From the IMG/VR virus record IMGVR_UViG_3300025913_000021, positions 85,261-149,260 of that record: a stretch of 64,000 bases of DNA; one strand, given 5' to 3'. How positions within the stretch are numbered: the first letter of the stretch is position 1; every line of letters begins with the position of its first letter. Shown in pieces: positions 3,073 to 63,250 of the stretch. The translations under genes and the position numbers were made by a program. The notes under the pieces are model-generated. The model made no database searches. It was not told where the DNA came from and saw nothing but the letters and a program-made list of their open reading frames with translations. Source of the stretch: a virus.

Positions 3073-3852
3073 ATGGCGGTGGGAAAGCATCAGCTAACGG
3101 ACGGTGAACTCGACGAGCAGTGGGCCCTCCTCAAGGCCGGAGGACCACGCGCTTCGACCGCCAGGGACCGTCTCGTGCTGCACTGGCGTCCGTTCGTCTG
3201 CTCGATCGCCAACCACATCGGCACCCGACTCCCGGCCCACGTGGACAACGAGGACCTGATCAGCTACGGGATGATCGGGCTCCTGGACGCCATCGAGAAG
3301 TTCGACCCCGGCCGTGGCCTCCGCTTCAAGACCTACGCCGGGAAACGGATCAGCGGCCAAATCTACGACGAGCTGCGCAAGCTCGACTGGGTTCCGCGCT
3401 CGGTGCACAGCCAGGTCAAGGAGGTCACCGAGACGGTGATCGACCTGGAGCGCAGGCTCCAGCGTCCCGTCTCCGATGCCGAGGTGGCCAAGGCTGCCGG
3501 ACTGAGCCGCGAACAGGTCGCTGACGCCCGCAGCGAGCAGTCCTACATCAGCGTCATGGCGCTGGACGCCCTGCTGGACAACAACGTCGGGGACGAGACC
3601 CTCTCGCTGGCCAGCCAGCTCTACGACCGCACGCAGTCACCCGACCAGGACTTCGAGGTCGAGGGCATCAAGGCTCTGATCGCCGGGGCTATGGCCAACC
3701 TGGGTGAGCGCGAGGCGCTGGTGCTGGCGCTGTACTACATCGAGGGGCTGACGCTCTCCGACATCGGTGGGCTGCTCGGCGTCACTGAGTCTCGCGTGTG
3801 CCAGATGCATACCCGCGCGATGGTCGCAGTCCGCGAACGTCTCGCCGCCTGA
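3073..3852 (+). CDS. whiG: RNA polymerase sigma factor, FliA/WhiG (sigma-28) family
   Basis: Region 2 GLLDAIEKFDP..FKTYA..RI.G...DELRKLDWVPRS; region 4 LYYIEGLTLSDIGGLLGVTESRVCQMH. Both closely resemble Streptomyces WhiG. Alternative start at 3031. Confidence 0.93.
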   Translation: MAVGKHQLTDGELDEQWALLKAGGPRASTARDRLVLHWRPFVCSIANHIGTRLPAHVDNEDLISYGMIGLLDAIEKFDPGRGLRFKTYAGKRISGQIYDELRKLDWVPRSVHSQVKEVTETVIDLERRLQRPVSDAEVAKAAGLSREQVADARSEQSYISVMALDALLDNNVGDETLSLASQLYDRTQSPDQDFEVEGIKALIAGAMANLGEREALVLALYYIEGLTLSDIGGLLGVTESRVCQMHTRAMVAVRERLAA

Positions 3853-3976
3853 ACCGGATTTGGCTGCTCGTCCGTCCGCACTTCACGCACGCGGGCGGCA
3901 TCGCGTGGTAGGCGTCCCAGGCGTGATCGCAAGGCACGACGGTCTGCCAGAGCCGTCGCAGGGCGTGCTTGATCAC
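3782..3976 (-). CDS. small CxH...CxxC protein overlapping the 3' end of the sigma gene in antisense
   Basis: GTGA coupling with 3973..4398; CDH and CVKC motifs; 71-nt convergent overlap. Confidence 0.45.
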   Translation of the reverse strand: MIKHALRRLWQTVVPCDHAWDAYHAMPPACVKCGRTSSQIRFRRRDVRGLRPSRGYASGTRETQ

Positions 3977-4398
3977 TTCGCTTCGGGGCTGAGGTACTTC
4001 GCCAGGCGCGGATCCGGTGGCGGTAGCAGGCCGTGCTTCTTCTCGCAGTCGTAGGCGAAGTAGGAGTTGCGGAAATCGGCGATCAGATGCAAACCGACGG
4101 CCGTCGTATTCGGCGCGAGCGGGATCGTCCCCACGTCGTGATAGAGGTTGCAGTTCGCCTGGTCCCCGTGCTGCACGGTGCTCTTGACCCGGGAAGCCTC
4201 GGTGGCGTTGCGGAACACGAGGATCGCCACGATCACCACCAGCACGAGGATCGCCCCGTCGCGGACCTGGCTGCGGATGCGCTCGCGGCGCACCCTGATC
4301 TGAGCCTCCTCGCGGGCCACCTTCGAGGAGACCAGCGCGGTCGCCTCCAGGCGTGCCTTCTCGGTGACCTGGGGCACTCCGATGTCGTCCGGGCTCAT
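3973..4398 (-). CDS. bitopic membrane protein
   Basis: GAGGAGG SD before ATG at 4398; TM segment AILVLVVIVAILVF; two Cys in the C-terminal domain. Confidence 0.75.
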   Translation of the reverse strand: MSPDDIGVPQVTEKARLEATALVSSKVAREEAQIRVRRERIRSQVRDGAILVLVVIVAILVFRNATEASRVKSTVQHGDQANCNLYHDVGTIPLAPNTTAVGLHLIADFRNSYFAYDCEKKHGLLPPPDPRLAKYLSPEAK

Positions 4399-4418
4399 GG
4401 CGACCTCCTCTGGTAGTC

Positions 4419-4447
4419 CCATCGGCCGTTGCCCCTTCGCGTCTGAC
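4419..4447 (-). promoter_or_regulatory. sigma-28-type promoter
   Basis: GTCAGA-N15-GCCGATGG upstream of gene 4398. Confidence 0.65.
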
Positions 4448-4671
4448 GAGCTAATGTTCGGCTTGTGATAAGTCGCTAACCTGAACCCCAGGTGGTGCCG
4501 CGCTGAATGCCGCCGCACCCACACGCATCAGTACCCGCAGGATCGCAACCGTATCGGTGAGCGCGCCTGGTGCTACGTGATCAGCGAGGAACCCGAGACC
4601 CCCGATGAGTGGTCGGCGTTCCGAGATCAGGTCTACCGAGTCGGCTGTCGAGGCCCGCGCGAGCGTGCAGC

Positions 4672-4971
4672 ATGAGCGAGCCGACCGAGGTCGAGAAGCT
4701 CCAGCGCGAGATCGACTCACTGCGCGACCAGCTCGCCGACGCCAACGCCAGAGTGCAAACGCTGAGGTGGCAGAACCAAGCACTGGAATCGGTTCACCTC
4801 TCGCCCGAGCAGAAGGCACGCTCGCACCAGAACGCCGAGGTCTACTACTGGATCGCCAAGTGCCAGCGGCAGCGACGGGCGATCAACCACATCCAGCGCA
4901 AGGGTTGGTACCCACCGGAGTACGTGATCCGCGAGGAGGAGACTCCGTGGGAGCTGGATCAGACCGCGTAG
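4672..4971 (+). CDS. coiled-coil hypothetical protein
   Basis: MSEPTEVEKLQREIDSLRDQL heptads. Confidence 0.65.
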   Translation: MSEPTEVEKLQREIDSLRDQLADANARVQTLRWQNQALESVHLSPEQKARSHQNAEVYYWIAKCQRQRRAINHIQRKGWYPPEYVIREEETPWELDQTA

Positions 4972-5045
4972 ATCGCCACGACCAGCAGGGACATGCCGAG
5001 CACGACTAGGACGACCCCGAGCTTCTGATCATGTCCGAGCGCCAT
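4959..5045 (-). CDS. 28-aa single-TM microprotein (not in ORF track)
   Basis: MALGHDQKLGVVLVVLGMSLLVVAIYAV*, translated by hand. Confidence 0.4.
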   Translation of the reverse strand: MALGHDQKLGVVLVVLGMSLLVVAIYAV

Positions 5046-5127
5046 CGGGCGAGCCGATCACGGATTCGGCCGCTCGTCCAATCGGAACGTCTTTCGGCTC
5101 AGCTCAAGGTCGCCTAGGTTGTTCGGC

Positions 5128-5514
5128 ATGCCCGCGCCCGAGGAGCCCGATCCGCTCGACGACATCAGCACTGCTGCGCTCAGGGCGGCGCTGGAGCGTC
5201 GGGGGTATGTCACCCTCACGGCGAAGTCCTACAAGGCCGCACAGCGCCGCCAGGGGATCGCGCAGAGCCGCATGGCGTGGGCCGAACGAGAGGCCGAGAG
5301 CGCTCGGAGCTGGGCCTACGACTGCCTGGCCGAGGAGCGTCGTCTGCACGCCCGACTGAACGAGATCATCGCCCTGGCGACGCAGCACGGGATGACCACG
5401 GAGGATCTCGTCCGCTTCAACGAGCAGCTCGGACTTCGGGGCGCTCTGCCACCGACCACCGTCGTGCCCGAACTCCCAGGGGCCGTCACTCATCGCATCC
5501 CGGAGCAGCCGTGA
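5128..5514 (+). CDS. hypothetical protein
   Basis: Open frame; GTGA coupling with the next gene. Confidence 0.6.
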   Translation: MPAPEEPDPLDDISTAALRAALERRGYVTLTAKSYKAAQRRQGIAQSRMAWAEREAESARSWAYDCLAEERRLHARLNEIIALATQHGMTTEDLVRFNEQLGLRGALPPTTVVPELPGAVTHRIPEQP

Positions 5515-5768
5515 CCCTGCCACAGGACGACGCCGACCTGTCCCCGCAAGTGCTGCGGGAGTACGCGATCCAATGCCTGCGCCAGGCTGGGACCTTCTCG
5601 TACCTGCCGTACACCCCCGCAGCGCCGGTCGCGCAGCCGGGCTTCACTGCACCGCAGCCGCTCCCGACACCGGATGCGCGCCCGAGCGGCATCCTGTACG
5701 CGCTCCAGGGCCTGCTGGCCATGCAGATCGCGAACTCGATCACGCACGTCATCGAGGAGCACCCATAG
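5511..5768 (+). CDS. hypothetical protein
   Basis: GTG at 5511 after GGAG; ends just before the terminator. Confidence 0.55.
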   Translation: MTLPQDDADLSPQVLREYAIQCLRQAGTFSYLPYTPAAPVAQPGFTAPQPLPTPDARPSGILYALQGLLAMQIANSITHVIEEHP

Positions 5769-5770
5769 AT

Positions 5771-5803
5771 GAGCCCCTCCGCACGGGGGAAACGGAGGGG
5801 CTC
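5771..5803. terminator. hairpin between convergent genome arms
   Basis: Perfect 11-bp inverted repeat GAGCCCCTCCG/CGGAGGGGCTC at the strand switch. Confidence 0.7.
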
Positions 5804-5849
5804 AACGATCAGTCTGCGCCCACCGAGAAACGGACGCAAGTCCGAATAT

Positions 5850-5959
5850 TGGGGCGACAGGTGCCGGTGTAACGAGCATGTGCTAGCAAGCTCGGCCTCC
5901 ATGACTCGGCCAGGAGGAGTGCTTCCGGTTTAGAGCCGACGTTTCACCTGTCGCCGCCC
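5850..5959 (-). ncRNA. candidate structured ncRNA downstream of the tRNAs
   Basis: 11-bp closing stem GGCGACAGGTG/CACCTGTCGCC followed by CCA; three internal hairpins; TATGCT just upstream. Strand is inferred. Confidence 0.45.
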
Positions 5960-5978
5960 GAGAGCATACCGAACATCG

Positions 5979-6051
5979 TCCGGGTGGAGGGACTCGAACC
6001 CCCGATCCCTTGGTCCCAAACCAAGTGGCCTAGCCGCTGGCCTACACCCGG
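5979..6051 (-). tRNA. trnP: tRNA-Pro(TGG)
   Basis: Cloverleaf: CCGGGTG/CACCCGG acceptor stem, CTTGG-TTTGGGA-CCAAG anticodon arm, TTCGAGT T-loop, A73; CCA not encoded. Confidence 0.93.
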
Positions 6052-6067
6052 GTGCGGGTTGCGATTG

Positions 6068-6140
6068 CAGGGGCGGTAGGACTCGAACCTACGGATGCCG
6101 GGTTTGGAAGCCGGTGCTCTTGCCGCTGAGCTACACCCCC
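6068..6140 (-). tRNA. trnW: tRNA-Trp(CCA)
   Basis: GCTC/GAGC D-arm, TTCCAAA anticodon loop, GTAGG-TTCGAGT-CCTAC T-arm, G73; C31.C39 mismatch; CCA not encoded. Confidence 0.88.
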
Positions 6141-6204
6141 TTGGGAGCGCAGCCTCGCAGCGACTGCGCTCAGTAGAGCGGTCGCGGTCGCCAGCAGCGG
6201 AAGG

Positions 6205-6681
6205 TCATGACGGAGAGGCTAGCTGGTCGTCATCGAGGACATCAAGCGATTTCCGAACACCGCACTCGCATCCTGGAGCGAGGCACTGGCCTCGGTGATG
6301 GCGGGCCCGAGCATGTGGGCAGCCGCAGGGTTCCGGCATGGAAAGCAACGTCCGTCCGATTCCCTGCATCGGCTCGGCCTCGACGTGCCCATGTCGCTCG
6401 ATGGCCAGGCCGGTGGTGCCTGCACCCTCTGGACTCAGCAGGAAGTAGAGGATCTCCTGGGCGCGCTGCTTCGGAATCTGGTAGCTGTCGTGCACGTAGT
6501 CGTGATGCCGACGGCACAGCGTGATCAGGTTCTCGGGCACGTCGTGCGCATAGCCGCGCCGGTAGGTGATGTGGTGCACGTCGTAGGGCGGCTGGTTGGT
6601 CGCCCCGCACCACCGGCAGCGGTAGTTGTCCCGCTCGAAGATCGCGAGCTTGAGCTTCTTCGGCAGGCCCGTGTAGGTCAC
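6205..6681 (-). CDS. HNH endonuclease
   Basis: RDNYRCRWCG...VHHI...NLITLCRRHH; extra Cys/His-rich C-terminus; GTG at 6681 is coupled. Confidence 0.88.
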   Translation of the reverse strand: MTYTGLPKKLKLAIFERDNYRCRWCGATNQPPYDVHHITYRRGYAHDVPENLITLCRRHHDYVHDSYQIPKQRAQEILYFLLSPEGAGTTGLAIERHGHVEAEPMQGIGRTLLSMPEPCGCPHARARHHRGQCLAPGCECGVRKSLDVLDDDQLASPS

Positions 6682-6908
6682 GCCTCGGCCGCGTCCTCGT
6701 TCTCGTCCTCGACCTCGTGCTGCCCGACGAGCCACTTCTTGTTCGTGGCCAGGTGCAGCGAGATCGTGTGCTCGCCGGGCTGCTGAGCCGCACGGAAGAA
6801 CTCGATCAACATGTCCTTGTTGACCTCGGCCCAGAACACCTCCTCGCCCTTCTCGTCGAACACGCGCAACGTCGGTAGGTCACCACTGCCTCGCGGGGTG
6901 TCACTCAT
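6678..6908 (-). CDS. hypothetical protein
   Basis: ATG at 6908 after GGAGAAG; coupled. Confidence 0.6.
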   Translation of the reverse strand: MSDTPRGSGDLPTLRVFDEKGEEVFWAEVNKDMLIEFFRAAQQPGEHTISLHLATNKKWLVGQHEVEDENEDAAEA

Positions 6909-7305
6909 GCTTCTCCGACCAATCCGGTGCATCGACGCCACCATGCCGAGGCACGCCGAGTGGGTTGCGCGAGTTCGGCTCCTCGGCCGTATTCGGGATG
7001 CTGTTGGCATAGCTCATCGGCTGGATCTGGAAGTCGATGGGCTTGCTCAGTCCGCTCGACTGCTGGATCTGCAATGAGAGAGCAGTGTTCACAAGACGCA
7101 GCCGACGCATGTCGTCGCCACGACCGCCGAACATCTTCATGAAGTCGTCGTCGTCCAGGATCAGACGCACGTCGATATCCCGGTAGTCGCTCGTCCTCAG
7201 CGCCGACCCGACGAGGTACGGCGTCGAGCCGAACGCCTCGCGGATCGGCTGGCAGGCCCAGTTCAGCCGCATCAGGTCCGACGGGCTCAGGCCACTGCCT
7301 CTCAT
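6901..7305 (-). CDS. minimal nucleotidyltransferase (Pol-beta superfamily)
   Basis: YLVGS...DYRDIDV (GS + DxD) and a downstream IDFQ acidic strand. Confidence 0.75.
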   Translation of the reverse strand: MRGSGLSPSDLMRLNWACQPIREAFGSTPYLVGSALRTSDYRDIDVRLILDDDDFMKMFGGRGDDMRRLRLVNTALSLQIQQSSGLSKPIDFQIQPMSYANSIPNTAEEPNSRNPLGVPRHGGVDAPDWSEKHE

Positions 7306-7667
7306 GACGCGATGAAGAACGGGCGTCGGTAGAAGTGACCCGGGTAGCCGATGTTCATCGAGTTGAAGTTGATCATGTCGATGAACTCCTGCATCTGCTC
7401 GCGCGACAGGTGCTGGTAGTAGAACTTCCCCTCGTGCTGGCCGTCCGGGCTCTTGAGGTACGCCTTGTAGTTCTTGTCGGTCGGCGAGACCTCGTGTCCG
7501 TCACGCAGGCCCTGCATGAAGTCGTCCGGGTGCATCGAGCCGCAGTAGGAACAGCCGCGCGTCTGATTCACCAGGCCGCGACCCTCGCGCCAGTCGTCCG
7601 GCGTGCCCTGCTCGTCGCCGCCGTACGCGAACAGCTCATTGCGACGAGGGCATCGGAACTCACCCAA
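7302..7667 (-). CDS. hypothetical protein
   Basis: CSYCGS motif; coupled on both sides. Confidence 0.65.
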   Translation of the reverse strand: MGEFRCPRRNELFAYGGDEQGTPDDWREGRGLVNQTRGCSYCGSMHPDDFMQGLRDGHEVSPTDKNYKAYLKSPDGQHEGKFYYQHLSREQMQEFIDMINFNSMNIGYPGHFYRRPFFIAS

Positions 7668-8361
7668 TCTTGAGCACCTGCCCGGCCTCGATGTGGTTGA
7701 TGTCGTGGATGCCGTTGAGCCGCGCGATCGACTGCGCGGTGATCCACTTCTGCGGGTACTTGTGAGCGATCGTCGTGAGCGTGTCGCCCGGCCGGACCTT
7801 GTAGTGGTCCACGATCCCGTGACCGCTCGGGGCAGGCGGCTTCGGCGTGGGCGGGTGCGGCGTCGGCACGTTGGGGTTCACCTGCGCCCAGAGCGCCTTG
7901 CGGATCTGGATCGCCCGGGCATCGTTGCGCCGGTAGTTGCCCCCGGTTGGGTCGAACGAGCCCTGGACGGACTGCGCGGCGTCCCAGTTGGTCATGTGCA
8001 GCCAGTTGCGCTTGAACAGCTCGGTGAGGAACTTGCGCGTCGAGTAGCCCACGTCCATGCACTGCGAGGTCGTGCCCCAGTTGGCCGTCGAGTTGACCGC
8101 CCCGCCGACCTGCTGCTGGTACAGCCCGACGGAGCCGTGGTCCCAGCCCACCGCGTCGTGCGGCAGGCGCATGCTGAGCGGGTTGTTGCCGTTGGCGTAC
8201 ATCCGCAGGCCCGACTCGGTGAGCACGGTCCCCAGAGCAATGTCAGCGGCGCGCTGCGCCACGGCGGGCGACAGCTTCATCCCCTTGATGATGGCGATGA
8301 TCTTGTAGGCCCAGTTGAACTGCGACTTCGTGAGCCCGAGCGAGGCAGGAGTGGCGGTCAT
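7660..8361 (-). CDS. endolysin: lysozyme-like muramidase domain + Pro linker + LysM
   Basis: TESGL...DHGSVGLYQQ...WG lysozyme-fold motifs; C-terminal LysM YKVRPGDTL..IA...LNGI.DINHIEAGQVL; ATG at 8361. Confidence 0.82.
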   Translation of the reverse strand: MTATPASLGLTKSQFNWAYKIIAIIKGMKLSPAVAQRAADIALGTVLTESGLRMYANGNNPLSMRLPHDAVGWDHGSVGLYQQQVGGAVNSTANWGTTSQCMDVGYSTRKFLTELFKRNWLHMTNWDAAQSVQGSFDPTGGNYRRNDARAIQIRKALWAQVNPNVPTPHPPTPKPPAPSGHGIVDHYKVRPGDTLTTIAHKYPQKWITAQSIARLNGIHDINHIEAGQVLKIG

Positions 8362-8368
8362 ACCTCCT

Positions 8369-8397
8369 TGTTCGGACTCCGACCACAGCAGTATGAA
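8369..8397 (-). promoter_or_regulatory. sigma-28-type promoter of endolysin
   Basis: TTCATA-N15-TCCGAACA, 7 nt before the ATG. Confidence 0.55.
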
Positions 8398-8405
8398 CTC
8401 GGAAC

Positions 8406-8996
8406 TCACTCCCCGATCAGAAGCTGAACGATCTGCTCGTCCGTCGGCTGCTGGCCGTACCTGGATGCTGTCGCTCCGCGCTGACCCTGGTACTTCGAGT
8501 TCAGCCCCGGGTGGCCATACGGCCTCTCCGCAGGCCGGTCCAGATACGTGAAGCTCACCTGGCAGATCCGCATACCGACAGGCAGCCGAATCGGGAACGG
8601 CGAGACGTTGGATAGTTCCAACGTGATCTGACCCTCGAAGCCCGGGTCGATGAAGCCCGCCGTCGCGTGCACCAACAGACCCAGCCTGCCCAGGCTCGAC
8701 TTCCCGTCCACCTGGCCAACGAGATCCCGGGGGAGTTGCACCGACTCGATCGTCGATGCCAGGACGAAGCGTCCCGGGTACAGCACGCACCCCCCGGAGA
8801 TCACTTCGGTCATATCGGTCGGTTCCATTGGGTCGATGATCGGTGCGATCTGATCGAGCGACGGCTGCGTGAACTCGCGAAACGAATCGGCCAAACGGAG
8901 ATCGACGCTGCACGGTTGGATCGCATCCTCGTCCAGGGGGTCGATGCCCAGTCGGCCGTGGTGGATCAGCTTGCGGATGGTGCCGTCACTGAGCAC
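8406..8996 (-). CDS. dcd: dCTP deaminase
   Basis: IQPCSVDLRL, DGKSSLGRLGL, TAGFIDPGFEGQITLE, SKYQGQ; GTG at 8996. Confidence 0.95.
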   Translation of the reverse strand: MLSDGTIRKLIHHGRLGIDPLDEDAIQPCSVDLRLADSFREFTQPSLDQIAPIIDPMEPTDMTEVISGGCVLYPGRFVLASTIESVQLPRDLVGQVDGKSSLGRLGLLVHATAGFIDPGFEGQITLELSNVSPFPIRLPVGMRICQVSFTYLDRPAERPYGHPGLNSKYQGQRGATASRYGQQPTDEQIVQLLIGE

Positions 8997-9582
8997 GGTA
9001 GGGCTCGCTATCGGGGATGTCGCCGGGCGCATCGCTCGGCGTGACGAGGAACGGGTCGGCCGCGAAGCAGGTGTTGAGGTGCACCAGCTCGTGCCCGAGC
9101 TGCACGTCCCAGTGGTTGCGCGCCGTTTTCGAGACTTCCACGGCGGTCTCGATCGCGCGGCCTCGGACGATATAGGCGAGCGTCCGAAGTGGCTGCACGC
9201 AGCGAGCGGTGTTCGCACCCATCGGGATCGGCCGACGGACGTGCTCACCGCCGAGGTAGATCGACTCCCAGAACGGAGGGAGTTCGCTGATAACCCGGCT
9301 TATCACCTGCCGGAAGTTCGGCTGCACCACGGCGTCGTCCTCCAGTACGAGGACCGTCGCGCCCTTCGGGGAGCCCTCCAGCACCGCACGGTGGCTCATC
9401 ATGCAGCCGTACGCCTCGGGCGACCCGATCCAGTTCGACGGCGGGGTGAGCGTGCCACCCTCGATCGCGTCGATGATGCGGATCGGGAAGCCGAGGCGCT
9501 GGTCGAGACCGACCAGGGCAGCCCGACGATCAGTACGGCGAGCCAGCGATATGCACGCCGCGAAGTCGGGCTGCCAGGTCAT
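8986..9582 (-). CDS. glycosyltransferase family 25
   Basis: ISLARRTDRR, DAIEG, GCMMSH and LVLEDDA motifs. Confidence 0.85.
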   Translation of the reverse strand: MTWQPDFAACISLARRTDRRAALVGLDQRLGFPIRIIDAIEGGTLTPPSNWIGSPEAYGCMMSHRAVLEGSPKGATVLVLEDDAVVQPNFRQVISRVISELPPFWESIYLGGEHVRRPIPMGANTARCVQPLRTLAYIVRGRAIETAVEVSKTARNHWDVQLGHELVHLNTCFAADPFLVTPSDAPGDIPDSEPYRAQ

Positions 9583-14580: not shown

Positions 14581-16854
14581 CTAGCTGATCGCGGAAAGCT
14601 CCGGTTGGTCGTAGCTCTCCTCCTGCTTGTCGAACGCGTACTTCCAGGTGTACGGGTCGCCCCGCTTGCCCGAGCCGACGCGCTCGAAGTCCTTGCGGGT
14701 GTCCATGATGTCGATCAAGTGCATCTTGATCCGTCCAGGCTGGCACCCGAACCTGGCCGACGCCATGTGCAGGAACTCGTCCTCGATGACCGGGACGACC
14801 TCCAGCAGCACGTTGGCGACGTTCTCCGTGGACAGCGGCAAGCGCTTGGCGTGCACGCGCCGGTACGCCGCCGTGGTGCCCTCATCCTCGTCGTCCTCGG
14901 AGGAGAACTTGAACGGGGCGATCTCCGTGTAGTTGATCGACTCCTTGCCGCGCTTGAGCAGCAGCGGGTCCGGTGCAGCCGCGTCACGGAACGCGGTGAA
15001 GGAGCAGATCACGTCGTAGGGGTTGGCGACCGAGCGCTCCTTGAAGTTCAGCAGCACCGTGCCGTTGACCCAGCCGGTCCAGAGGAACGAACCGGCGACC
15101 GAATCGACATCCGGCATTTCGTTGCGGGCGTTGCTGCCCTTCTTCTGGTGGTGCGTGAGGATGATCGAGACGCCGGTCTCGGCGATCACCTCGTCCAGCA
15201 CCGCGAACACCTTGGTCAGTGAGCGCGAGGACTCGAAGTCGCCGCCGCCGAAGAACTTGTAGGCCGTGTCCAGGATGACGACCTCGGCGCTGTTGGCCGT
15301 CACCAGGTTGATCAACTGGTTGGCCGCGTTGTCGGCGTCGAGCCGCAGCGCGAAGTCGTGGTCGATGAGCAGCTTCTCCTCGGCGAGCTGATAGCCCGGC
15401 CGTCCGTCCATGAGCGTGTTGAGCCGGTCGTAGAGACTGCGCTTGCTCAGCTCACGGTCGAGCAGCAGCACTCTATGGCCGGGCGTCGGATTGCTGTTGG
15501 CGATCCCGAACCCCGGGAAGCCACCGCCCTTGCTCGTGGCCAGGAACGGGATGCCCGCCGCGATCGAGCACGCGAGGTTCTGCGCGAAGATGCTCTTGCC
15601 GACCTTCGGGGCTCCCGTGATCAGCAGCCGTCCACCCTTCGGCAGCAGACCGTTATCGACGAGGAACACCGCCTCCTCGGGAGGTGCCTGACGGATTTGG
15701 GCGAACGTCTGAACGACGAACGGTGACACCTTCGGCTTGCCGTCCACCAGCATGTCGAAGTCCATGAAGGTCTGGCCGTCGCGCATGATGAACTCGTTGA
15801 TGTCCGTCTTGGGCGCGCCCTCGGGCAGCGGCAGCACGACGTTGCGAGCCCGGTGCCCGAAGAAGTCCAGCAGCTTCGTCGCCGCGTCCTGGCCCGGGTT
15901 GTGCCCGGCGCAGTCCGCCTTCTCGACCGTGCCGCACTTCCGGCAGTTCTCGCGCTGATGCACGGCCGGGTTGTCGTTGTCCAGGACGATCACGATGTCC
16001 TTGGCGTGCATGAAGTATTGCGCCCACTCGGGCTTGAAGTTGGCCGCGCCCGGCAGCGACACCGCCATCTTCCCGTTGCGGGCGAGCAGCATCGCCTTGA
16101 ACTCGCCCTCGCAGATGTAGACCCGGCCGCGCTCGTCACCGTTGGCGTGCCCTGGGTTGAACAGCCGCAGCGGGTCCTCGCGCACGGTGTCGTTCTGGCG
16201 CTCCCACCAATACTTCGACCCGTTGGGCCCGCCGTACATCGGCTTGCCCTTCTCGTTCACGCCGCGCTGCACCGGGTCGTAGTAGCGGAACGCGACCGGC
16301 CGACGACCCTCCAGGTAGGGGATGACGTAGTAGCCGCCGGAGTTCTTGCACTCCTCGATCTGCTCCTCCGTCATGCCCTCGGTGGGCTCCTTGACGTAGC
16401 GGTAGCCGATGCGGAAGCGGTCGATGATCTCGTCGTTGAGCCCCTTCTCGTACAGCACCTGGCGCAGGTCCGTTGTCAGACGCGCCTGGTACTTCTGGAG
16501 TTCGACGTTCTTGCTCTTGAAGCTCATCAAGAGCTGCGGGTCGTCGTTCACGCCGAAGAACTTCGAAAGGGTCTGGAGGTTGCCGCTCTCACCGCAGCTC
16601 GCCGCCTGGCAGTAATACTGCGAGGTCTTGGCGTCCAGGTAGAAGTGCGTCTTTTCGTTGCGGCCGAGCGAGCCTTCCTCCTCATGGAAGGGGCACTTGA
16701 ACTCGTACTGGCCGTTCTGCGGTGCGACGCGGCGGGAGAGGAACCCGTACTTCTCCAATAGCTGCTTGGCGGCTTCGCCCTCGTTCCTCGGCCCACTTGC
16801 CCTTTGTTCGGATTGGGCGCTACGCTGATCGGGCACCAGCATGAGACGAGCCAC
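14581..16854 (-). CDS. DNA primase-helicase (Zn finger + TOPRIM + RecA-like ATPase)
   Basis: CPFHEE...YYCQAASC, ICEGEFKA, LDND, Walker A GAPKVGKS, VVILDT, HHQKK. Confidence 0.9.
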   Translation of the reverse strand: MARLMLVPDQRSAQSEQRASGPRNEGEAAKQLLEKYGFLSRRVAPQNGQYEFKCPFHEEEGSLGRNEKTHFYLDAKTSQYYCQAASCGESGNLQTLSKFFGVNDDPQLLMSFKSKNVELQKYQARLTTDLRQVLYEKGLNDEIIDRFRIGYRYVKEPTEGMTEEQIEECKNSGGYYVIPYLEGRRPVAFRYYDPVQRGVNEKGKPMYGGPNGSKYWWERQNDTVREDPLRLFNPGHANGDERGRVYICEGEFKAMLLARNGKMAVSLPGAANFKPEWAQYFMHAKDIVIVLDNDNPAVHQRENCRKCGTVEKADCAGHNPGQDAATKLLDFFGHRARNVVLPLPEGAPKTDINEFIMRDGQTFMDFDMLVDGKPKVSPFVVQTFAQIRQAPPEEAVFLVDNGLLPKGGRLLITGAPKVGKSIFAQNLACSIAAGIPFLATSKGGGFPGFGIANSNPTPGHRVLLLDRELSKRSLYDRLNTLMDGRPGYQLAEEKLLIDHDFALRLDADNAANQLINLVTANSAEVVILDTAYKFFGGGDFESSRSLTKVFAVLDEVIAETGVSIILTHHQKKGSNARNEMPDVDSVAGSFLWTGWVNGTVLLNFKERSVANPYDVICSFTAFRDAAAPDPLLLKRGKESINYTEIAPFKFSSEDDEDEGTTAAYRRVHAKRLPLSTENVANVLLEVVPVIEDEFLHMASARFGCQPGRIKMHLIDIMDTRKDFERVGSGKRGDPYTWKYAFDKQEESYDQPELSAIS

Positions 16855-21528: not shown

Positions 21529-21698
21529 GCCAGTCACCCTCCCACCCACCACTGACAAGAACGGCCCGTCGAATCCGAACATCGGACCCGTTTGTTCGAG
21601 TCGTTCGAGGCGGTGTCGAGGAAGTTAGCACCCTCTACAGAGGGTCACCAAGACCCAGTTTTTGCCCGTCTTTGTTCGGATTGGCAGGCTGTTCGGAC

Positions 21699-23684: not shown

Positions 23685-23713
23685 CCATCGGTCCTTCGCG
23701 GCTACGGCTTCAC
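23685..23713 (-). promoter_or_regulatory. sigma-28-type promoter
   Basis: GTGAAG-N15-ACCGATGG upstream of the membrane-protein/holin operon. Confidence 0.55.
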
Positions 23714-44481: not shown

Positions 44482-44510
44482 CCTTCGGCAACGATCACTT
44501 TCGGAAGTAG
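44482..44510 (-). promoter_or_regulatory. candidate sigma-28-type promoter of tape measure gene
   Basis: CTACTT-N15-GCCGAAGG. Confidence 0.45.
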
Positions 44511-47086: not shown

Positions 47087-47115
47087 CCATCGGTAGACCG
47101 GTTAGGCGGATTCCC
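47087..47115 (-). promoter_or_regulatory. candidate sigma-28-type promoter (weak -35)
   Basis: GGGAAT-N15-ACCGATGG. Confidence 0.4.
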
Positions 47116-49816: not shown

Positions 49817-49845
49817 CCATCGGCGTGGTTCGACCGCCGCTTGAG
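49817..49845 (-). promoter_or_regulatory. sigma-28-type promoter, leaderless
   Basis: CTCAAG-N15-GCCGATGG, then 6 nt, then ATG; best match in the window. Confidence 0.8.
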
Positions 49846-53919: not shown

Positions 53920-53948
53920 TCGTCGGCCGAGATCTAGCTCAGAATGAC
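53920..53948 (-). promoter_or_regulatory. sigma-28-type promoter, leaderless
   Basis: GTCATT-N15-GCCGACGA, then 7 nt, then ATG. Confidence 0.65.
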
Positions 53949-54731: not shown

Positions 54732-54760
54732 TCGTCGGCCGCTGAACCGTTCCGATTCAG
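54732..54760 (-). promoter_or_regulatory. sigma-28-type promoter, leaderless
   Basis: CTGAAT-N15-GCCGACGA, then 7 nt, then ATG. Confidence 0.65.
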
Positions 54761-55461
54761 AAGCCGACGCGCTCGTCGATGACGCCCAGCATCCCCGGGC
54801 TCATCACGTGCTTGGCCTTCACGTCGAGGTTGATGGCCATCTGGAGCCCGCGCTCCCACGCGTTCTTGGCCCAGCCGATGTCCTCGCCCTGCCGGTGCAC
54901 GGCGTAATCGACGCCCCGGACCATCTCCGGTGACATGAGGACGGCCCCGAACACCGCATACGCCCTATGGACGCCCGTCCAAATCTGGCTCAGCCTCCAG
55001 CGGTTGCCGGTGAGATCGAAGGCGTTCGGGCACTGACCGGTCGGCGTCATGTGCGTCAGCGGGGCGACCGCCTGGTAATGGACGCCGAGCGTGTCCACAA
55101 GGTTCTCCACGGCTGTGGACGGCAGCAGGATGTCCGTGTCGAGGCTCAGGTAGAGGCACGGCGGCTGCTCGCGCACGAACTCCAGCAGCCGATTGCGCAG
55201 CCGGACCATCGTGGCGTAGCGGTCCTCGTTCCAGCGCCGGTCGGGCCGGTGGTCATCTGACTCATCGGTCAGAACCGATACCCGGCCGAATCCGTGCTCG
55301 GCCTGTGCACCCTGGATGATCTCCAAGGTGTCGTCCGTGGAGTGGCCGTAGTTCAGCACGACGTGCAGCCGCTGCGGCTCGATCGTCTGCTTGCCTAGGT
55401 GCTCGAACCAGTCTCTGAGGATCCACCCGCGCTGGTGGACCGGTGCCCCAACGACGATCAT
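54757..55461 (-). CDS. GT-A glycosyltransferase
   Basis: STDDT, LRNRLL, LSLDTD, GEDIGW. Confidence 0.82.
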   Translation of the reverse strand: MIVVGAPVHQRGWILRDWFEHLGKQTIEPQRLHVVLNYGHSTDDTLEIIQGAQAEHGFGRVSVLTDESDDHRPDRRWNEDRYATMVRLRNRLLEFVREQPPCLYLSLDTDILLPSTAVENLVDTLGVHYQAVAPLTHMTPTGQCPNAFDLTGNRWRLSQIWTGVHRAYAVFGAVLMSPEMVRGVDYAVHRQGEDIGWAKNAWERGLQMAINLDVKAKHVMSPGMLGVIDERVGF

Positions 55462-56162
55462 GACAGCCCTGCGTACCTCTCCAGTCTCGGCTGCTGGATG
55501 ATCGAGGCGATGTGCCGGTCGTTGTGGCCGTGCCCGCCGAGCCGCTCGCTGTAGAGCGCGTGCTTGCGCTGCCGATCGGCGATGCGCAGGTACCCCCAGT
55601 GCAGCAGGTGCGCCTCGTTCTGCGGGAACCAGTCGCCGCGATGGACCGCCGCCTGGACGTAGGTGGGCTCGGAGCCGCAGGCCATCTCCTTGTCGGCGAT
55701 GCGCGCACCCTCCTGCCAGCGGAACAGACGCGTGGCCGAAGTGCCGAACCAGAAGCCATCGGTGCGGTACTGGTCGGGGCTCCAGAACTCGTAGAGCGGC
55801 AGTCCGATCGCCACGTCGTTCGGTCGGACCCGCTCGGTCGCCCGGACCAGCTTCTCGGCGTCGTTGATCGTCTCGTCGGCGTCCAGGCTGAGCACCCAGT
55901 CACCCGGCTCGACCCACTGCGCCACGTAGTTGAGGTGCCGCTGCCGCGCCTGGCCCTCGTTCTTCCAGAACAACGGCTCGTCGGTGCGCTGCACGCGCCG
56001 GGTCCAGCGCTTGCAGATCTCCACCGTGTCGTCGTCGCTGGCGTCGTCGGTGACGATGATCGACCCGCCCGCGAGGTTCTGGATCTGCCACGCGGTGCGC
56101 AGCGCGTTCTCCAGGTAACGGCCGGACTCGTTACGCACCATCATGATCGTATGGATGGTCAT
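55458..56162 (-). CDS. GT2-family glycosyltransferase
   Basis: VRNE, DDASDDDT, WVLSLDADE, RLFR, LLHWGY. Confidence 0.88.
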   Translation of the reverse strand: MTIHTIMMVRNESGRYLENALRTAWQIQNLAGGSIIVTDDASDDDTVEICKRWTRRVQRTDEPLFWKNEGQARQRHLNYVAQWVEPGDWVLSLDADETINDAEKLVRATERVRPNDVAIGLPLYEFWSPDQYRTDGFWFGTSATRLFRWQEGARIADKEMACGSEPTYVQAAVHRGDWFPQNEAHLLHWGYLRIADRQRKHALYSERLGGHGHNDRHIASIIQQPRLERYAGLS

Positions 56163-56776
56163 CGCTTCGCCCTTGCTACGAAGATCCCGTTGTGATTCCG
56201 GAACATGCGGTAGCGACGGAAGTCGCGCACCCGCTCCTCCTCCAGGAAGAACCCGGCCTCCATCAGTCGATGGCCCCACCACTGCCGCGACTTGATCGTC
56301 ACGTGCGTCGGGTCGGACTCCCAGCCCGGCACGCTGTCCAGGCAGATGCTCAACAGCAGCGTGCCTCCTGGCCGAGCCATCGCCAGGCGCAGGTTCTCCA
56401 GCGCCACGCCGACGTGCTCCTCCGGGATGTGCTCCATCGTCTCGAAGCACGTCACCAACTGGAACACGAGCCCCGGCTTGCCGACCATGCTGTTCGGCAC
56501 GGTGAGGTCGATGAAGTTCACGAAGGGCTTGATGATGCTCGGCGCGAGCCCGAGCGCGTAGTCCGAGTAGTCGAGTCCGAAGGTCTCCACGCCGCGTCGC
56601 CGCATGTGGTGCACGAGGTAGCCCGCTGCGCAGCCCACGTCGAGCATCCGCGCTGGTTGCAGCTCCTCGACCAGGATGTGCGCCAAGTCCTCCCAGATCG
56701 GCGAGTCGCGGTAGCCTGCCCCACCGTCGAGCGACTCCCAGTAGTCCTCGCCGTAGTCGAGATCCTCGGTCCTCAC
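56159..56776 (-). CDS. class I SAM-dependent methyltransferase
   Basis: MLDVGCAAG, GLDYS, CFETMEHI, DPTHV. Confidence 0.88.
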   Translation of the reverse strand: MRTEDLDYGEDYWESLDGGAGYRDSPIWEDLAHILVEELQPARMLDVGCAAGYLVHHMRRRGVETFGLDYSDYALGLAPSIIKPFVNFIDLTVPNSMVGKPGLVFQLVTCFETMEHIPEEHVGVALENLRLAMARPGGTLLLSICLDSVPGWESDPTHVTIKSRQWWGHRLMEAGFFLEEERVRDFRRYRMFRNHNGIFVARAKR

Positions 56777-57591
56777 TCGACCTCCCCGGCCATGTCGATG
56801 CCGCACATGATGCAGGCCCTGGCGAACTGCGCCTGCGGTACGAGGAAGGACTGCGAGCCCGGCTTCGAGCTGCGATGCCACTCGTGGATCATGGCGACGC
56901 TGCCCATGTAGACGACGCGCCACCCGTGCTGGCGCGCGTGGTAGGAGCAGAACGTCTCCTCGAAGAAGTGCTTGGTCGGCAGGAACGCACCGGTCGCTTC
57001 GACCTCGCACGCGGCCTTCGCAGCGCGCTGGTAGTCAGCGCACTCGGTCAGCTCCAGCCACATCTTCGTGCGCACGAAGTACGTCGCGCCGGAGACGGTG
57101 TTGACCTCCAGGGCGTCCTTGTACTGACCGAGGTCCGGCTCCATCCAGCCGCGATGGTGGTTCCTCGGCTCGGCGTCCGTGGTGACGATTCCGGCGTGCG
57201 TCAGTTTCCCGTTGCTGGTCCGCGTCCTGGGACCGATCACGCCGATGTCGGGGAACGTCTCGAAGGCGTCGATGATCTGTTGGATCTTCTCGCCCTCGAT
57301 GAACTGCACGTCGCAGTTGAGGATCGCCGCGTACGGCGCGGGGTGCGCCCAGAAGCTCATGCCCTGGTTCACCGCACGGGCGTAGCCCACGTTCTCGGTG
57401 TTGGTGATGATGTGCGCGTCGTCCGGGATGTTCTTGCGGATCGCGTCGAGCGTCGCCATGCCGGGCGAGTAGTTCTCGATGACCAGGAGCCGGTAGGGCA
57501 CGTCCAGATGCGCCAGGCTCCGGAGGAACGCAGCCGTCTCCTCCGGAGCCTCGTACGCGACCGCCACCAGATCCAGCAGCGGCGCGCCCAC
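56773..57591 (-). CDS. GT2-family glycosyltransferase
   Basis: IENYS, NVGYARAVNQG, ILNCDV, VSGA, FFEETF. Confidence 0.88.
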   Translation of the reverse strand: MGAPLLDLVAVAYEAPEETAAFLRSLAHLDVPYRLLVIENYSPGMATLDAIRKNIPDDAHIITNTENVGYARAVNQGMSFWAHPAPYAAILNCDVQFIEGEKIQQIIDAFETFPDIGVIGPRTRTSNGKLTHAGIVTTDAEPRNHHRGWMEPDLGQYKDALEVNTVSGATYFVRTKMWLELTECADYQRAAKAACEVEATGAFLPTKHFFEETFCSYHARQHGWRVVYMGSVAMIHEWHRSSKPGSQSFLVPQAQFARACIMCGIDMAGEVE

Positions 57592-58203: not shown

Positions 58204-58247
58204 GCTTCTCTCTCCCAGGTCCATGAGCGCGGTCGAGGCGCTTCGGC

Positions 58248-58276
58248 TGTTCGGACTATAGACGTTCGTTCGTTAG
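58248..58276 (-). promoter_or_regulatory. sigma-28-type promoter of the glycosyltransferase operon
   Basis: CTAACG-N15-TCCGAACA. Confidence 0.55.
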
Positions 58277-58835: not shown

Positions 58836-58838
58836 GAC

Positions 58839-59735: not shown

Positions 59736-59758
59736 CCGACTGAGCCGTCCCGGGCAGC

Positions 59759-60697: not shown

Positions 60698-60715
60698 TGG
60701 CTAATCCACCCCCTC

Positions 60716-61267: not shown

Positions 61268-61285
61268 GTCTCGTGCCTCCTTTCC

Positions 61286-62377
61286 CTACTCGGCGGGACC
61301 GAGCCCGAGCGCGGCGCGGCGAGCCGAAGGCTGCTGACCGGTCTGGCTGTCCCGGGTACCCGTGACGGCGGATGCCGTCTCGGTGGTCGTGACGGTGGAG
61401 GTGCCGCCCTTGGCGACCTTCCACTCGTCGAGGCGTTCCGCCCAAGCGGCCTCGTCGGCCTCGGCCCACTTGCTGGCCCGCTCGGTGATGAACTCCTCGG
61501 TGAACAGGCCCAGGTTCCGAACCTGCGTCGCGCGAGCGCTGGCGAGTTCCGCCTTGGCGGCGGCAGCGGCCTTCTCCTCGGCCTCGGCCTTGAGAGCGGT
61601 CGCCTCGTCCTGCGCAGCCTTGAGAGCCACCTGCGCGGTGTCGAGTTCGCCGTTGATGCGCTCGTTCTCCTTGCTCGCCGCTTCGAGCGCGCTCGACTTC
61701 TCGGTGAGCTGCTCGGTGAGGGTCGCGACCTGCTTGGCCAGATCGTCGCGCTCGGTGGTCAGAGATGCGGTCGCGTCACTGACGGCCTTGGCGAGGAGGG
61801 CCTCGTGGGTCTCCGTGGAGATGGACTTCACGTCGTCGGTTTCCATGTGCTTGGTTCCTCCTCTCGCTGCTGCGTCAGGGCGGTTGCCGGTCGCGTCCCG
61901 CTTCCCAGGAGTGACATCGGAGCCACTCGCGGGTGAATCAACTTCCGCCTTCTCGGACGACTTCTTGGCGGCAGGCTTGGCAGCCGGGGCGTTGGCCTCG
62001 GCAGCCTTCTTTTCCGCCTCGACGCCGAACTTCTTGAGTGCGGCGGCGATCTTCGTTCGGATGGTCGAGAGCTGATCCGCCGAGTAGTTGGCGGCGTTCG
62101 CCTCTTGGTGGATGTAGGACCACGCAGCTCGTGCGTGGGCCTCGGTGTCGATGGGGTAGCGCTTCTTCCCGTCCTTCTGGTAGCCGGGGTCCGCGTACTG
62201 CACATCGCCGTACGGCTTCTTGGCATCGGCGAGTTCGAGGCGGTCGTAACCGGAGGGGATCCCGTCGCCCGTCATTGCCCAGTCCGCACAGAAGGGACAC
62301 ACGTCAGAGTCGTGCCGGGCATCTTCCGGAGCCCGAAGAAGGAGCGCGTCATGGATATCCAGCGCGGTCTCCAACAT
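61286..62377 (-). CDS. capsid scaffold protein with N-terminal DUF6582-like domain
   Basis: KRYPIDTEAHARAAWSYI...KFGV, then a long coiled coil; GGAGG before ATG at 62377; second SD and ATG at 61846. Confidence 0.7.
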   Translation of the reverse strand: MLETALDIHDALLLRAPEDARHDSDVCPFCADWAMTGDGIPSGYDRLELADAKKPYGDVQYADPGYQKDGKKRYPIDTEAHARAAWSYIHQEANAANYSADQLSTIRTKIAAALKKFGVEAEKKAAEANAPAAKPAAKKSSEKAEVDSPASGSDVTPGKRDATGNRPDAAARGGTKHMETDDVKSISTETHEALLAKAVSDATASLTTERDDLAKQVATLTEQLTEKSSALEAASKENERINGELDTAQVALKAAQDEATALKAEAEEKAAAAAKAELASARATQVRNLGLFTEEFITERASKWAEADEAAWAERLDEWKVAKGGTSTVTTTETASAVTGTRDSQTGQQPSARRAALGLGPAE

Positions 62378-62396
62378 GAGTACCTCCACGCTTATT

Positions 62397-62425
62397 CGCT
62401 CGGAACCGACGTACGTCCGTTTGAA
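62397..62425 (-). promoter_or_regulatory. sigma-28-type promoter
   Basis: TTCAAA-N15-TCCGAGCG. Confidence 0.6.
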
Positions 62426-63214
62426 CTAACGGCGTCCGAGGGTCACCACAGCGGCCATCAGGTGCTCCCATTCGCGGGCCGAGATGTCGCCGACCGACGC
62501 GGCCTGGCGGAAGGCGTCCTCGGTCATCTCGGCGTAGCGAGCGGCTTCCTCGCGCACCGCGTCCTCGAACACGTGCGCGCTCGCGCCCTGCCAGCCGGGC
62601 CGGGTCGGCGGGATGATCAGCGCGCCGCCACGGAAGATCGGGTTGACGATGTGCCGGATGCTGGAGCGCTCCATCAGGTGCGCGCAGTGCGTCTCGGTGG
62701 CCATGTACTCGAAGGTCTGGTCGCAGCCGTTCGGGCCCGCGCAGTGCAGGTGCGAGCCCCGACACTCCATCGAGTAGAACAACTGGCCCGCCTCGTCGGC
62801 CTGATCGACCAGCGCGGCCTCGAACGGGAACACGTGGCTCCACATCCCGGCCAGCGCCTCGATCTTCGCCGTGCCCTGCGCCGCCGCACCGTCGGAGTGG
62901 GTCAGCGGGATCGTCTGGGTCGAGGAGAAGAAACCGACGGGCGTCTGTTGCTTGTGCAGCATGTTCAGCGGGCTGTACTTGATGCTGTACTCGCCGATCG
63001 CGAGGTCGTCCTTCGTCCAGAACTGCGTGTTCGAGTTCGGGTTGTCGGCCTCCACGAAGTCGCCGACGATCCACTTGATGAAGGGGTTGGCCTTCTCGAC
63101 GGCGAAGTTGCTGGCAGCGGCCAAGTCCTCGCTGACCTCGACGCCCTGGCGCACCACGCGGGCGGCGTTGGTGAACATGAGCCGCCCACCGGTCTCGATC
63201 ACGAGCGTGTCCAT
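62426..63214 (-). CDS. prohead (capsid maturation) protease
   Basis: PNSN..F, PLNMLH, YSMEC, F.GGALI..P. Confidence 0.7.
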   Translation of the reverse strand: MDTLVIETGGRLMFTNAARVVRQGVEVSEDLAAASNFAVEKANPFIKWIVGDFVEADNPNSNTQFWTKDDLAIGEYSIKYSPLNMLHKQQTPVGFFSSTQTIPLTHSDGAAAQGTAKIEALAGMWSHVFPFEAALVDQADEAGQLFYSMECRGSHLHCAGPNGCDQTFEYMATETHCAHLMERSSIRHIVNPIFRGGALIIPPTRPGWQGASAHVFEDAVREEAARYAEMTEDAFRQAASVGDISAREWEHLMAAVVTLGRR

Positions 63215-63221
63215 ACGTGCT

Positions 63222-63250
63222 GGATCGGTCGTGATCGAGCCCGGACTTAG
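63222..63250 (-). promoter_or_regulatory. sigma-28-type promoter, leaderless
   Basis: CTAAGT-N15-ACCGATCC, then 7 nt, then ATG. Confidence 0.65.

Follow-up and report, generated by a model that had tools for sequence, protein, structure and literature searches.

The last 64 kb of a 149,260-bp virus contig (IMG/VR record IMGVR_UViG_3300025913_000021, positions 85,261 to 149,260; this stretch of 64,000 nucleotides (nt) is called the window here) contain a gene for a phage-encoded sigma factor and, on the opposite strand, a series of two-part elements upstream of putative virion and lysis genes. In the original prediction, 11 such elements, each with a -35 hexamer and a -10 octamer, were proposed to be the promoters of a late-transcription system that uses the phage sigma factor. 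Positions refer to the window unless they are given as genome positions, which count along the whole contig. Gene calls for the whole genome (about 265 genes) have been obtained with a codon-usage gene caller, and the start codons were thereby predicted blind to the motif. A clade of relatives is present in IMG/VR, five of which were fetched whole; the relative G001 is colinear with the phage genome at 67–81% nucleotide identity and spans its contig ends.

The sigma gene (P0001; 3073..3852, plus strand) encodes a 259-residue protein of the FliA/WhiG (sigma-28) subfamily. This assignment, already made in the original prediction, is borne out by TIGR02479 (226.2 bits against a cut-off of 189.6), Pfam, homology and structure. 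In Pfam, regions 2 and 4 are matched with E-values of 2.7e-16 and 5.4e-16 and region 3 weakly (1.5e-3), and the protein has the sigma2/3/4 domains without region 1.1. WhiG (6PFJ) and FliA (6PMI) align to the entire phage protein, and its best solved relative is the WhiG of Streptomyces venezuelae in its complex with RsiG and cyclic di-GMP (c-di-GMP) (6PFJ, E=5e-53). The WhiG equivalog model NF004935 gives 253.4 bits, below its cut-off of 343, which places the phage protein outside WhiG proper. The closest homologs are unnamed or FliA-named proteins on metagenomic contigs (85, 80, and 65% identity), the last of them on an 83.8-kb contig from the same sample as G001 and with the same local gene order. 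The named bacterial homologs are WhiG proteins of Actinomycetota and Acidimicrobiales (45–49% identity), and among GenBank phages identity does not exceed 37% in the best matches, which belong to Bacillus and gut phages. A peptide-pattern search of IMG/VR for the sigma factor returned zero loci. The gene and its neighbourhood are kept in every relative whose contig covers the region, including L054 and L055, and the more distant G005, with a guanine-plus-cytosine (GC) content of 41%, has a homolog at 40% identity.

The residues that read promoter DNA are invariant among 16 aligned phage and bacterial sequences. They comprise Arg92, Ile93, Gly95, Asp99, Glu100, Leu101, Arg102, Asp105, Trp106, Pro108, Arg109, Ser110, and Val111 in region 2.4 (RI.G.I.DELR..DW.PRSV) and Val237, Thr238, Glu239, Ser240, Arg241, Gln244, His246, and Thr247 in region 4.2 (GVTESR.CQMHT). 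Because these segments are identical in the phage clade and in bacterial WhiG, it is a reasonable expectation that the sigma-28/WhiG promoter preference is unchanged in the phage protein. The situation is different at the surface through which WhiG is held inactive. Lys57, Gly61, and Arg62 of WhiG contact c-di-GMP in the RsiG complex, and c-di-GMP would collide with a side chain of any kind at position 61 (PMC7005675). These three residues align with Cys43, Asn47, and His48 of the phage sigma factor; the lysine and the glycine are missing in 8/8 phage-clade sequences, while the bacterial sequences carry K..GR. Given the loss of the three contact residues, the phage sigma factor should escape the RsiG/c-di-GMP brake.

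Upstream of the sigma gene, a scan for TANNNT identified a putative promoter of the housekeeping-sigma type (3038..3072, plus strand), in which TTGCGC (3038-3043) and TATATT (3060-3065) are separated by 16 nt and the latter is followed by 7 nt and the ATG. L055 also has TATATT, 7 nt and ATG before its sigma gene, the corresponding -10 hexamer of L054 is degenerate (TGTATC), and the upstream region is partly conserved in both. The spacer of this promoter contains GTTCGG. A generic scan of positions 1-9000 for sigma-70 promoters and terminators found nothing above shuffled sequences; it misses the promoter of the sigma gene because the -35 hexamer matches at only 3/6 positions. Directly after the sigma gene and convergent to it lies a gene for a protein of 141 or 183 residues without a family match (3973-4524, minus strand). 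The position of this gene is kept in L054 (181 residues) and L055 (171 residues), and its product might act as a partner of the sigma factor or regulate it.

The genes of the phage fall into three groups, two minus-strand blocks and one plus-strand block. The plus-strand block (genome 28-91 kb) has the sigma gene as its last gene. A block of small genes, presumed early, runs on the minus strand from genome 27.3 kb down to 8 kb. The late minus-strand block continues through the contig ends: the packaging and head genes extend from genome 7.7 kb to 0.7 kb and then from window position 64000 to about 49000, followed on the same strand by tail genes (47000 to 23700, including a tape-measure open reading frame (ORF) of 2427 codons), replication genes (23600 to 9000, including a primase-helicase at 14581-16758 and a PD-(D/E)XK nuclease at 20722-21528) and lysis genes (8900 to 6200).

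All 11 predicted pairs of hexamer and octamer are found on the minus strand with a spacer of 15 nt, and CCGA is present in the -10 box of 11/11 sites. They do not form the clean set of promoters that had been claimed: approximately three are strong, three moderate, two intermediate and three weak, so that about half are credible sigma-28/WhiG-type promoters and the rest weak. One rule applied to them is external to these sites. In a 2026 preprint on actinobacterial WhiG homologs, the WhiG2 consensus is T(A/C)AA-N16-GCCGATAA and the WhiG1 consensus CTCA-N16-17-GCCGAACT, with an invariant central CGA; we will use the term “literature rule” for this consensus. Its -35 element, T(A/C)AA or CTCA, is exact at two of the sites (49817 and 62397), matches at 3/4 positions at seven and at 2/4 positions at two. 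The -35 rule given in the original prediction (T at position 2, A at position 3 or 4) is loose, and the conserved core consists of CGA or CCGA and its position.

The candidate late promoter at 62397..62425 (TTCAAA-N15-TCCGAGCG) precedes the DUF6582 'scaffold' gene, with a leader between box and gene that contains a GGAGG ribosome-binding site. It has one mismatch to the literature rule and is kept in nine phages as TT[CA]AA[AT]-N17/18-CGA[AGT], with divergent spacers; the orthologs retain only the CGA of CCGA, and three of the nine have GTG after exactly 7 nt behind the box. The second strong candidate (49817..49845, CTCAAG-N15-GCCGATGG) ends 6 nt before the ATG of a 198-codon gene and has no mismatches to T(A/C)AA-N16-GCCGA or to CTCA-N17; its counterpart in G001 is CTATAG-N15-GCCGATGG-N7-ATG. 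The third (8369..8397, TTCATA-N15-TCCGAACA-N7-ATG) lies before the endolysin gene, which is assigned by its LysM domain and PHROG matches, and the lysin gene of L054 is preceded by GTAATA-N15-GCCGAACA-N7-ATG.

Three further sites are moderate candidates. GTCATT-N15-GCCGACGA-N7-ATG (53920..53948) is found before a head-decoration-like gene that matches PHROG 2647. G001 has GTCATT-N15-TCCGAAGA at this place with a 30-nt insertion between the box and the ATG, and because the box is kept despite the insertion, it is not merely part of a ribosome-binding site. At 54732..54760, before an LtfC-like gene, the site reads CTGAAT-N15-GCCGACGA-N7-ATG and its -35 hexamer includes the TGA stop codon of the upstream gene; G001 keeps the box and its spacing (GCCGATCA-N7-ATG), and the -35 segment is missing. 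The site at 23685..23713 (GTGAAG-N15-ACCGATGG) is followed by a 51-nt leader, and both halves are kept in G001 as GTTCAG-N15-ACCGATGG.

The two intermediate candidates are CTAACG-N15-TCCGAACA (58248..58276), before a glycosyltransferase operon with GT2 domains at 56773-57591 and 55458-56162, and GTCAGA-N15-GCCGATGG (4419..4447), before the conserved gene that converges on the sigma gene. In the former the -35 hexamer includes an upstream TAA stop codon, and the same gene interval of G001 contains a TCCGAAC box in a different arrangement. The latter has one mismatch to the literature rule, and the ortholog of its gene in L054 has a different box (TCCGAAAG-N8-ATG). At the weak site 63222..63250 (CTAAGT-N15-ACCGATCC-N7-ATG) the -35 hexamer is the upstream TAA stop codon, and G001, G002, and G004 have neither the intergenic gap nor the box. 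GGGAAT-N15-ACCGATGG (47087..47115), before a tail gene of 444 codons, departs from the literature rule at three positions and has a poor -35 hexamer, which is not retained in G003, unlike CGATGG. CTACTT-N15-GCCGAAGG (44482..44510), before the tape-measure ORF, keeps GCCGA in G001, and its -35 hexamer, which is poor, falls within the preceding gene's coding sequence. For the genes behind the sites at 63222, 49817, and 47087, domain and PHROG comparisons gave no family support to the names 'protease', 'adaptor', and 'tail tube' that had been attached to them.

Outside the window, the gene of a putative large terminase (genome 4877; a weak PHROG match only, 5e-5) has a box followed by 7 nt and ATG that is kept in four phages, as TCCGAACA in two of them, CCCGATAA in G003 and TCCGATAC in G002; the last two are near-canonical. 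A site at genome 7779 (CTCA-N16-TCCGATGA) was rejected as a candidate, being not conserved in G003, G002, or G004.

For all 541 genes of seven related contigs, the spacing between CCGA and the predicted start codon has been plotted. The distribution has one sharp peak, of 17 cases where the mean per bin is 5.4 (permutation family-wise P=0.0016), at a spacing of exactly 10 nt between the end of CCGA and the start codon; these 17 cases represent about 11 distinct loci, since some are orthologous to each other. The start codon is ATG in 16/17 cases, compared with 65% overall. The geometry is an 8-nt box, nCCGAnnn, 7 nt, and the start codon. When the peak sites are aligned on the box, which has the consensus (G/T)CCGA(A/T)(C/A)A, they show T, A/C, A, and A/T at positions -35 to -32; position -31 is T in 11/17 and position -30 is C in 12/17. 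This -35 element is the literature -35 at exactly N16, and the refined motif, T(A/C)A(A/T)TC-N14-(G/T)CCGA(A/T)(C/A)A, equals T(A/C)AA-N16-nCCGA. In the phage genome itself, the genes with this spacing are the terminase gene, the endolysin gene (8361) and the genes starting at 49810 (6 nt), 53912, 54724, and 63214.

Transcription usually starts 6–9 nt after the -10 element, and a box followed by 7 nt and ATG is consistent with a start in this range. Since such a start would fall on the A of the ATG, leaderless messenger RNAs (mRNAs) are predicted at these genes; at six sites the start expected 6–8 nt past the box coincides with the ATG. Leaderless translation is common in mycobacteria, and actinobacteria translate leaderless mRNAs well.

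The original prediction proposed an enrichment check, which came out in two ways. The proposed regular expression is enriched upstream of late genes: 6 sense matches are found in the 50-nt upstream windows of 70 late-block genes, where about 0.75 are expected, and 0 matches in 130 plus-strand genes. The consensus, on the other hand, has no genome-wide intergenic excess. Of six intergenic sense matches to the literature rule, the late block has five, the left block one and the plus-strand block none, a bias with P ~0.004 by a hand estimate from relative intergenic lengths. Intergenic enrichment of the consensus is seen in G004 (P=0.011). A position weight matrix trained on the relatives places 13 of its 40 top matches in intergenic DNA and recovers 8 of the listed sites, a result that is not independent, as orthologs of these sites are in the training set.

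Taken together, these data make it moderately probable that a phage-encoded, WhiG-type and RsiG-insensitive sigma factor drives late, often leaderless, transcription. The core of the late-sigma proposal has indirect support in the sigma family, the DNA-reading residues, the fit of the motif to the actinobacterial consensus and the retention of several sites in relatives at 65–80% nucleotide identity; the set and the rule are not supported in the form in which they were stated. From the sequence we infer that the boxes are promoters, that the phage sigma factor reads them, where transcription starts and when. In the proposed mechanism, the phage sigma factor would take the place of the housekeeping sigma factor on the host core RNA polymerase and direct the polymerase to sigma-28/WhiG-type promoters of the packaging, head, tail, and lysis genes, with a sequence of approximately T(A/C)A(A/T)TC, 14 nt and (G/T)CCGA(A/T)(C/A)A. 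At about half of the sites the box ends 7 nt before the ATG, and transcription would begin at or beside the start codon and yield a leaderless mRNA; at the remaining sites a short leader with a GGAGG ribosome-binding site would follow the box. With the sigma gene at the end of the plus-strand block and behind a housekeeping-type promoter, the host polymerase would make the sigma factor first, and the sigma factor would then activate the late genes. Without the RsiG/c-di-GMP contacts it would be free of the host brake.

Several observations weigh against this reading. CCGA is frequent (9.5 per kb per strand, or about every 105 nt) and shows no excess between genes, and GCCGA is depleted there (0.7x). 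The -35 hexamers at 63250, 58276, and 54760 (cTAAgt, cTAAcg, and cTGAat) contain the stop codons of the upstream genes, and at many of the sites with a box, 7 nt and ATG the -35 element is weak or absent, falling in upstream coding sequence. The canonical TAAA-N15-GCCGATAA (at least 9/12 matches) occurs 28 times, with 2 matches in upstream windows, which is the chance level. The literature rule with at most one mismatch has 97 matches, of which the intergenic share is the same as that of the genome; with an exact -35 element it finds only 62397 and 49817 among the late genes and shows no intergenic enrichment. The enrichment of the regular expression is post hoc and circular because the rule was fitted to the same sites, and the single-genome statistics are modest. 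G005, which has a sigma homolog, shows no such sites and no enrichment. In the phage genome, and at the putative terminase site in G001, the 7 nt that separate box and ATG are rich in purines and look like a ribosome-binding site (AAGGAGGT), which would be unexpected upstream of a leaderless start; a single nucleotide lies between this stretch and the ATG, and G003 and G002 do not retain it. Finally, the plus-strand block and the regions before replication genes likewise contain CCGAACA boxes without a -35 element, and the motif is therefore not late-specific. A separate candidate in G005, CTAAGG-N15-GCCGATAC-N7-ATG, lies inside an ORF of 187 codons with its own ribosome-binding site and hence is not a promoter.

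The boxes could be real sigma-28-type promoters that are read by the WhiG/FliA of the host, with the phage sigma factor mainly reprogramming host development, motility, or pili. The motif fits a host-type consensus, and with identical DNA-reading residues the phage and bacterial sigma factors would be indistinguishable by their promoters. Such a role has been proposed for homologs of sporulation sigma factors in Bacillus phages, and host-directed phage sigma homologs have been described (bioRxiv 10.1101/2021.11.12.468384). However, reliance on a host sigma factor that is active only in certain developmental states would be a risk for the phage, the retention of the sigma gene and its neighbourhood across the relatives argues against this explanation, and the lost RsiG/c-di-GMP contacts fit a need for constitutive activity. 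We regard a purely host-read promoter set as unlikely.

The fixed distance to the start codon also allows the box to be read as an RNA-level signal for translation initiation, a 'start-associated sequence' on long polycistronic late mRNAs. Besides the spacing itself, the purine-rich 7 nt described above and the location of many sites in very short gaps within operons favor this explanation. On the other hand, a purine stretch 1 nt from the ATG is too close to work, and it is lost in G003 and G002 although the box and the spacing are kept. The same box is found 20–75 nt upstream of genes with a normal GGAGG (62397 and 23685), the G001 ortholog of the 53920 site keeps the box with its distance to the ATG shifted by 30 nt, and the T(A/C)A(A/T)TC element at exactly N16 upstream is not accounted for by a translation signal. 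These features leave such a signal with a small chance of being the correct explanation.

Chance and base composition, that is, frequent CCGA, -35 hexamers supplied by stop codons and AT-richer gaps, and constraint from neighbouring coding sequence, might account for most of the pattern. The abundance of CCGA, the three -35 hexamers that are stop codons, the several that lie in upstream coding sequence and the lack of intergenic enrichment of the consensus all agree with this. We nevertheless consider it quite improbable in view of the 10-nt peak and its ATG starts, the scaffold-gene site that is kept in nine phages despite variable spacers, the T at -31 and C at -30 that recur across non-orthologous loci, and the skew of the literature-rule matches to the late block.

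The claim that the replication genes have no comparable match in front of them holds for the bipartite motif, but CCGAACA boxes without a -35 element are found before the primase-helicase and nuclease genes. The first, a TCCGAACA box in the context CAATCCGAACAA (16805..16812, minus strand), either precedes the primase-helicase ORF or lies within its 5' end. G001 retains this box; as the longest ORF (14581-16854) may include it, the retention could be a consequence of coding. Two TCCGAACA boxes lie upstream of the nuclease gene (21673..21697, minus strand), the upstream one fused to the palindrome GGACGTTCGTCC; G001 keeps AATCCGAACAAA before this gene. As a single-block motif, CAWTCCGAACAW shows an approximately tenfold intergenic enrichment in all three blocks and is oriented with transcription in a ratio of 23:8. 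TCCGAAC occurs 15 times in intergenic sense DNA, where 1.55 are expected, mostly without a -35 element, and the single-block motif has no fixed -35. The CAWTCCGAACAW boxes could be promoters that the same sigma factor uses without need of a -35 element, forming a middle class, or they could have another role. In a family of housekeeping-type promoters such as TTGCCC-N17-TAATGT, the -10 hexamer is followed by the reverse complement, TGTTCGG. To read the word CCGAAC(A) as a site for another DNA-binding regulator, such as a LexA-like repressor or a phage regulator, in place of a -10 element would suit the excess of TCCGAAC in all three blocks and the reverse complement beside TAATGT hexamers and in the spacer of the sigma promoter, but is very unlikely, as the co-orientation with transcription is unexpected for a symmetric operator and the word matches the published WhiG1 -10 element, GCCGAACT. 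The more specific LexA/Cheo (SOS) box reading was rejected, with 0 matches to CGAAC-N4-GTTCG and 3 to GAAC-N4-GTTC in 149 kb.

The promoters of the housekeeping-like family have the form T(T/G)G(C/A)C(C/A)-N16-19-TA(A/T)(T/C)GT, often followed by TCGG, and members are found at genome 5926, 6186, 8869, 10228, 13402, 15771, and 27625 and at window 3038-3065 and 4430-4458. The family is concentrated in the small-gene block and in the vicinity of the sigma gene, where most of the members bearing TGTTCGG are found as well. TANNNT itself is enriched 3.5-fold between genes, with 53/147 copies in the 10.3% of the genome that is intergenic. In the gap between the gene convergent on the sigma gene and a plus-strand gene at 4672 (4399-4671), a single sequence is TTGCCC-N17-TAATGTTCGG when read on the plus strand and GCCGAACATTA when read on the minus strand, and CCGAAC(A/G)TTA is conserved in L054 and L055. 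This gap may contain overlapping divergent promoters of two sigma classes. An extension of the late-sigma proposal holds that the phage sigma factor, freed from RsiG/c-di-GMP, would also fire the WhiG/FliA regulon of the host during infection (sporulation, pili or motility, c-di-GMP enzymes) and that overlapping promoters on opposite strands (housekeeping-type TAATGTTCGG and CCGAACATTA, as in this gap) would act as mutually exclusive early/late switches; we consider this extension rather unlikely.

Two palindromes have also been observed. Two unrelated gaps (genome 56707-56719 and window 21574-21586) share the small palindrome AATCCGAACATCGGAC (TCCGA-ACA-TCGGA). The second is a 22-bp palindrome, approximately G-R-W-W-Y-S-GACG-NN-CGTC-S-R-W-W-Y-C, that is dispersed over the whole genome with a median spacing of about 2.4 kb. 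Its core, GACGnnCGTC, is present in 49 copies, 40 of them inside genes, and is the most frequent of the 256 palindromes of this 4-nn-4 type (same-composition controls have 5–16 copies), and it also ranks first in G001 (32 copies, observed/expected 6.8), L054 (13 copies in 17.7 kb) and G003. Examples are found at window 7164 (genome 92424), 10412 (95672), 28885 (114145), 54093 (139353), and 62408 (147668). In 12 copies that can be aligned to G001, the core is kept in 7 and the central NN is sometimes changed. The palindrome may serve as a binding site for a genome-wide DNA-binding protein or as a target of modification. It fills the spacers of the 62397 and terminase sites and explains part of the TCCGAA excess, and it is missing in the more distant orthologs of the 62397 site that retain TTCAAW-N17-CGA.

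Dozens of small unrelated genes end in ATC(C/G)AGGAGGA(A/G)CC directly 5' of the next start codon (for example at genome 17029, 17752, 19431, 55589, 62555, and 84871). The tag encodes a C-terminal peptide such as YVIQEEP*, and the same DNA is the ribosome-binding site of the next gene. G001 has a sequence resembling a transfer RNA (GGTTCAAATCC, ~5129-5200) where the phage genome has an unrelated gap 5' of a gene of 197 codons. L054, from the same sample as G001, encodes at 3618-4109, some 6 kb upstream of the sigma gene, a 163-residue protein with the C-terminal domain of the RNA polymerase alpha subunit (PF03118, 61.7 bits); a search of the phage genome for such a gene found none.

The contig has a GC content of 65% and a direct terminal repeat of 166 bp with one mismatch (genome 1-166 and window 63835-64000). 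Because of this repeat, and because G001 runs across the junction, the contig is a circular or terminally redundant genome that is essentially complete. The public record flags it as 'linear, 88% complete' despite the repeat. A megablast search of the window against GenBank phages gave no match, and none of the GenBank phages is a close relative.

The principle of a phage-encoded sigma factor for late genes has long been known. Middle or late transcription is timed by gp28 and gp33/34 in Bacillus phage SPO1, by gp55 in T4 and by the sigma factor of phiEco32 and 7-11. As in these phages, the gene described here would supply a specificity subunit for the host core polymerase, with a phage-specific motif before the later genes. 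It differs from them in being a little-diverged cellular sigma-28/WhiG that keeps the cellular type of promoter, and its hosts are presumably Actinomycetota. It shares the TIGR02479 subfamily, the level of identity given above and invariant regions 2.4 and 4.2 with the actinobacterial WhiG/FliA proteins (the WhiG of S. venezuelae and Rubrobacter radiotolerans and the FliA/'WhiG1' of Actinoplanes missouriensis). The boxes have the actinobacterial geometry as well (T(A/C)AA or CTCA, N16-17, and GCCGA with an invariant CGA), with TCCGAACA nearest to the WhiG1 -10 element. Unlike actinobacterial WhiG, the protein is phage-borne, scores below the equivalog cut-off, lacks the equivalents of Lys57, Gly61, and Arg62 and is predicted to target virion and lysis genes. 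The candidate phage promoters differ from the actinobacterial ones in the frequent spacing of exactly 7 nt between box and ATG and in the three final bases of the -10 box, which are not those of GCCGATAA; the canonical consensus shows no enrichment. A literature search found no paper describing such a WhiG-type late system in actinobacterial phages.

If correct, the proposal would make these uncultured actinobacterial phages a clear example of a late switch made from a barely altered developmental or flagellar sigma factor of the host. The promoter code would be directly readable, the late mRNAs would often be leaderless, and the anti-sigma/c-di-GMP brake would have been shed. This would help to annotate temporal gene classes in a family of ~150-kb phages, might offer orthogonal pairs of sigma factor and promoter for Actinomycetota and would allow a test of phage interference with WhiG-controlled programmes of the host. 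If the host-regulon extension were also true, the phage would directly capture an actinobacterial developmental switch.

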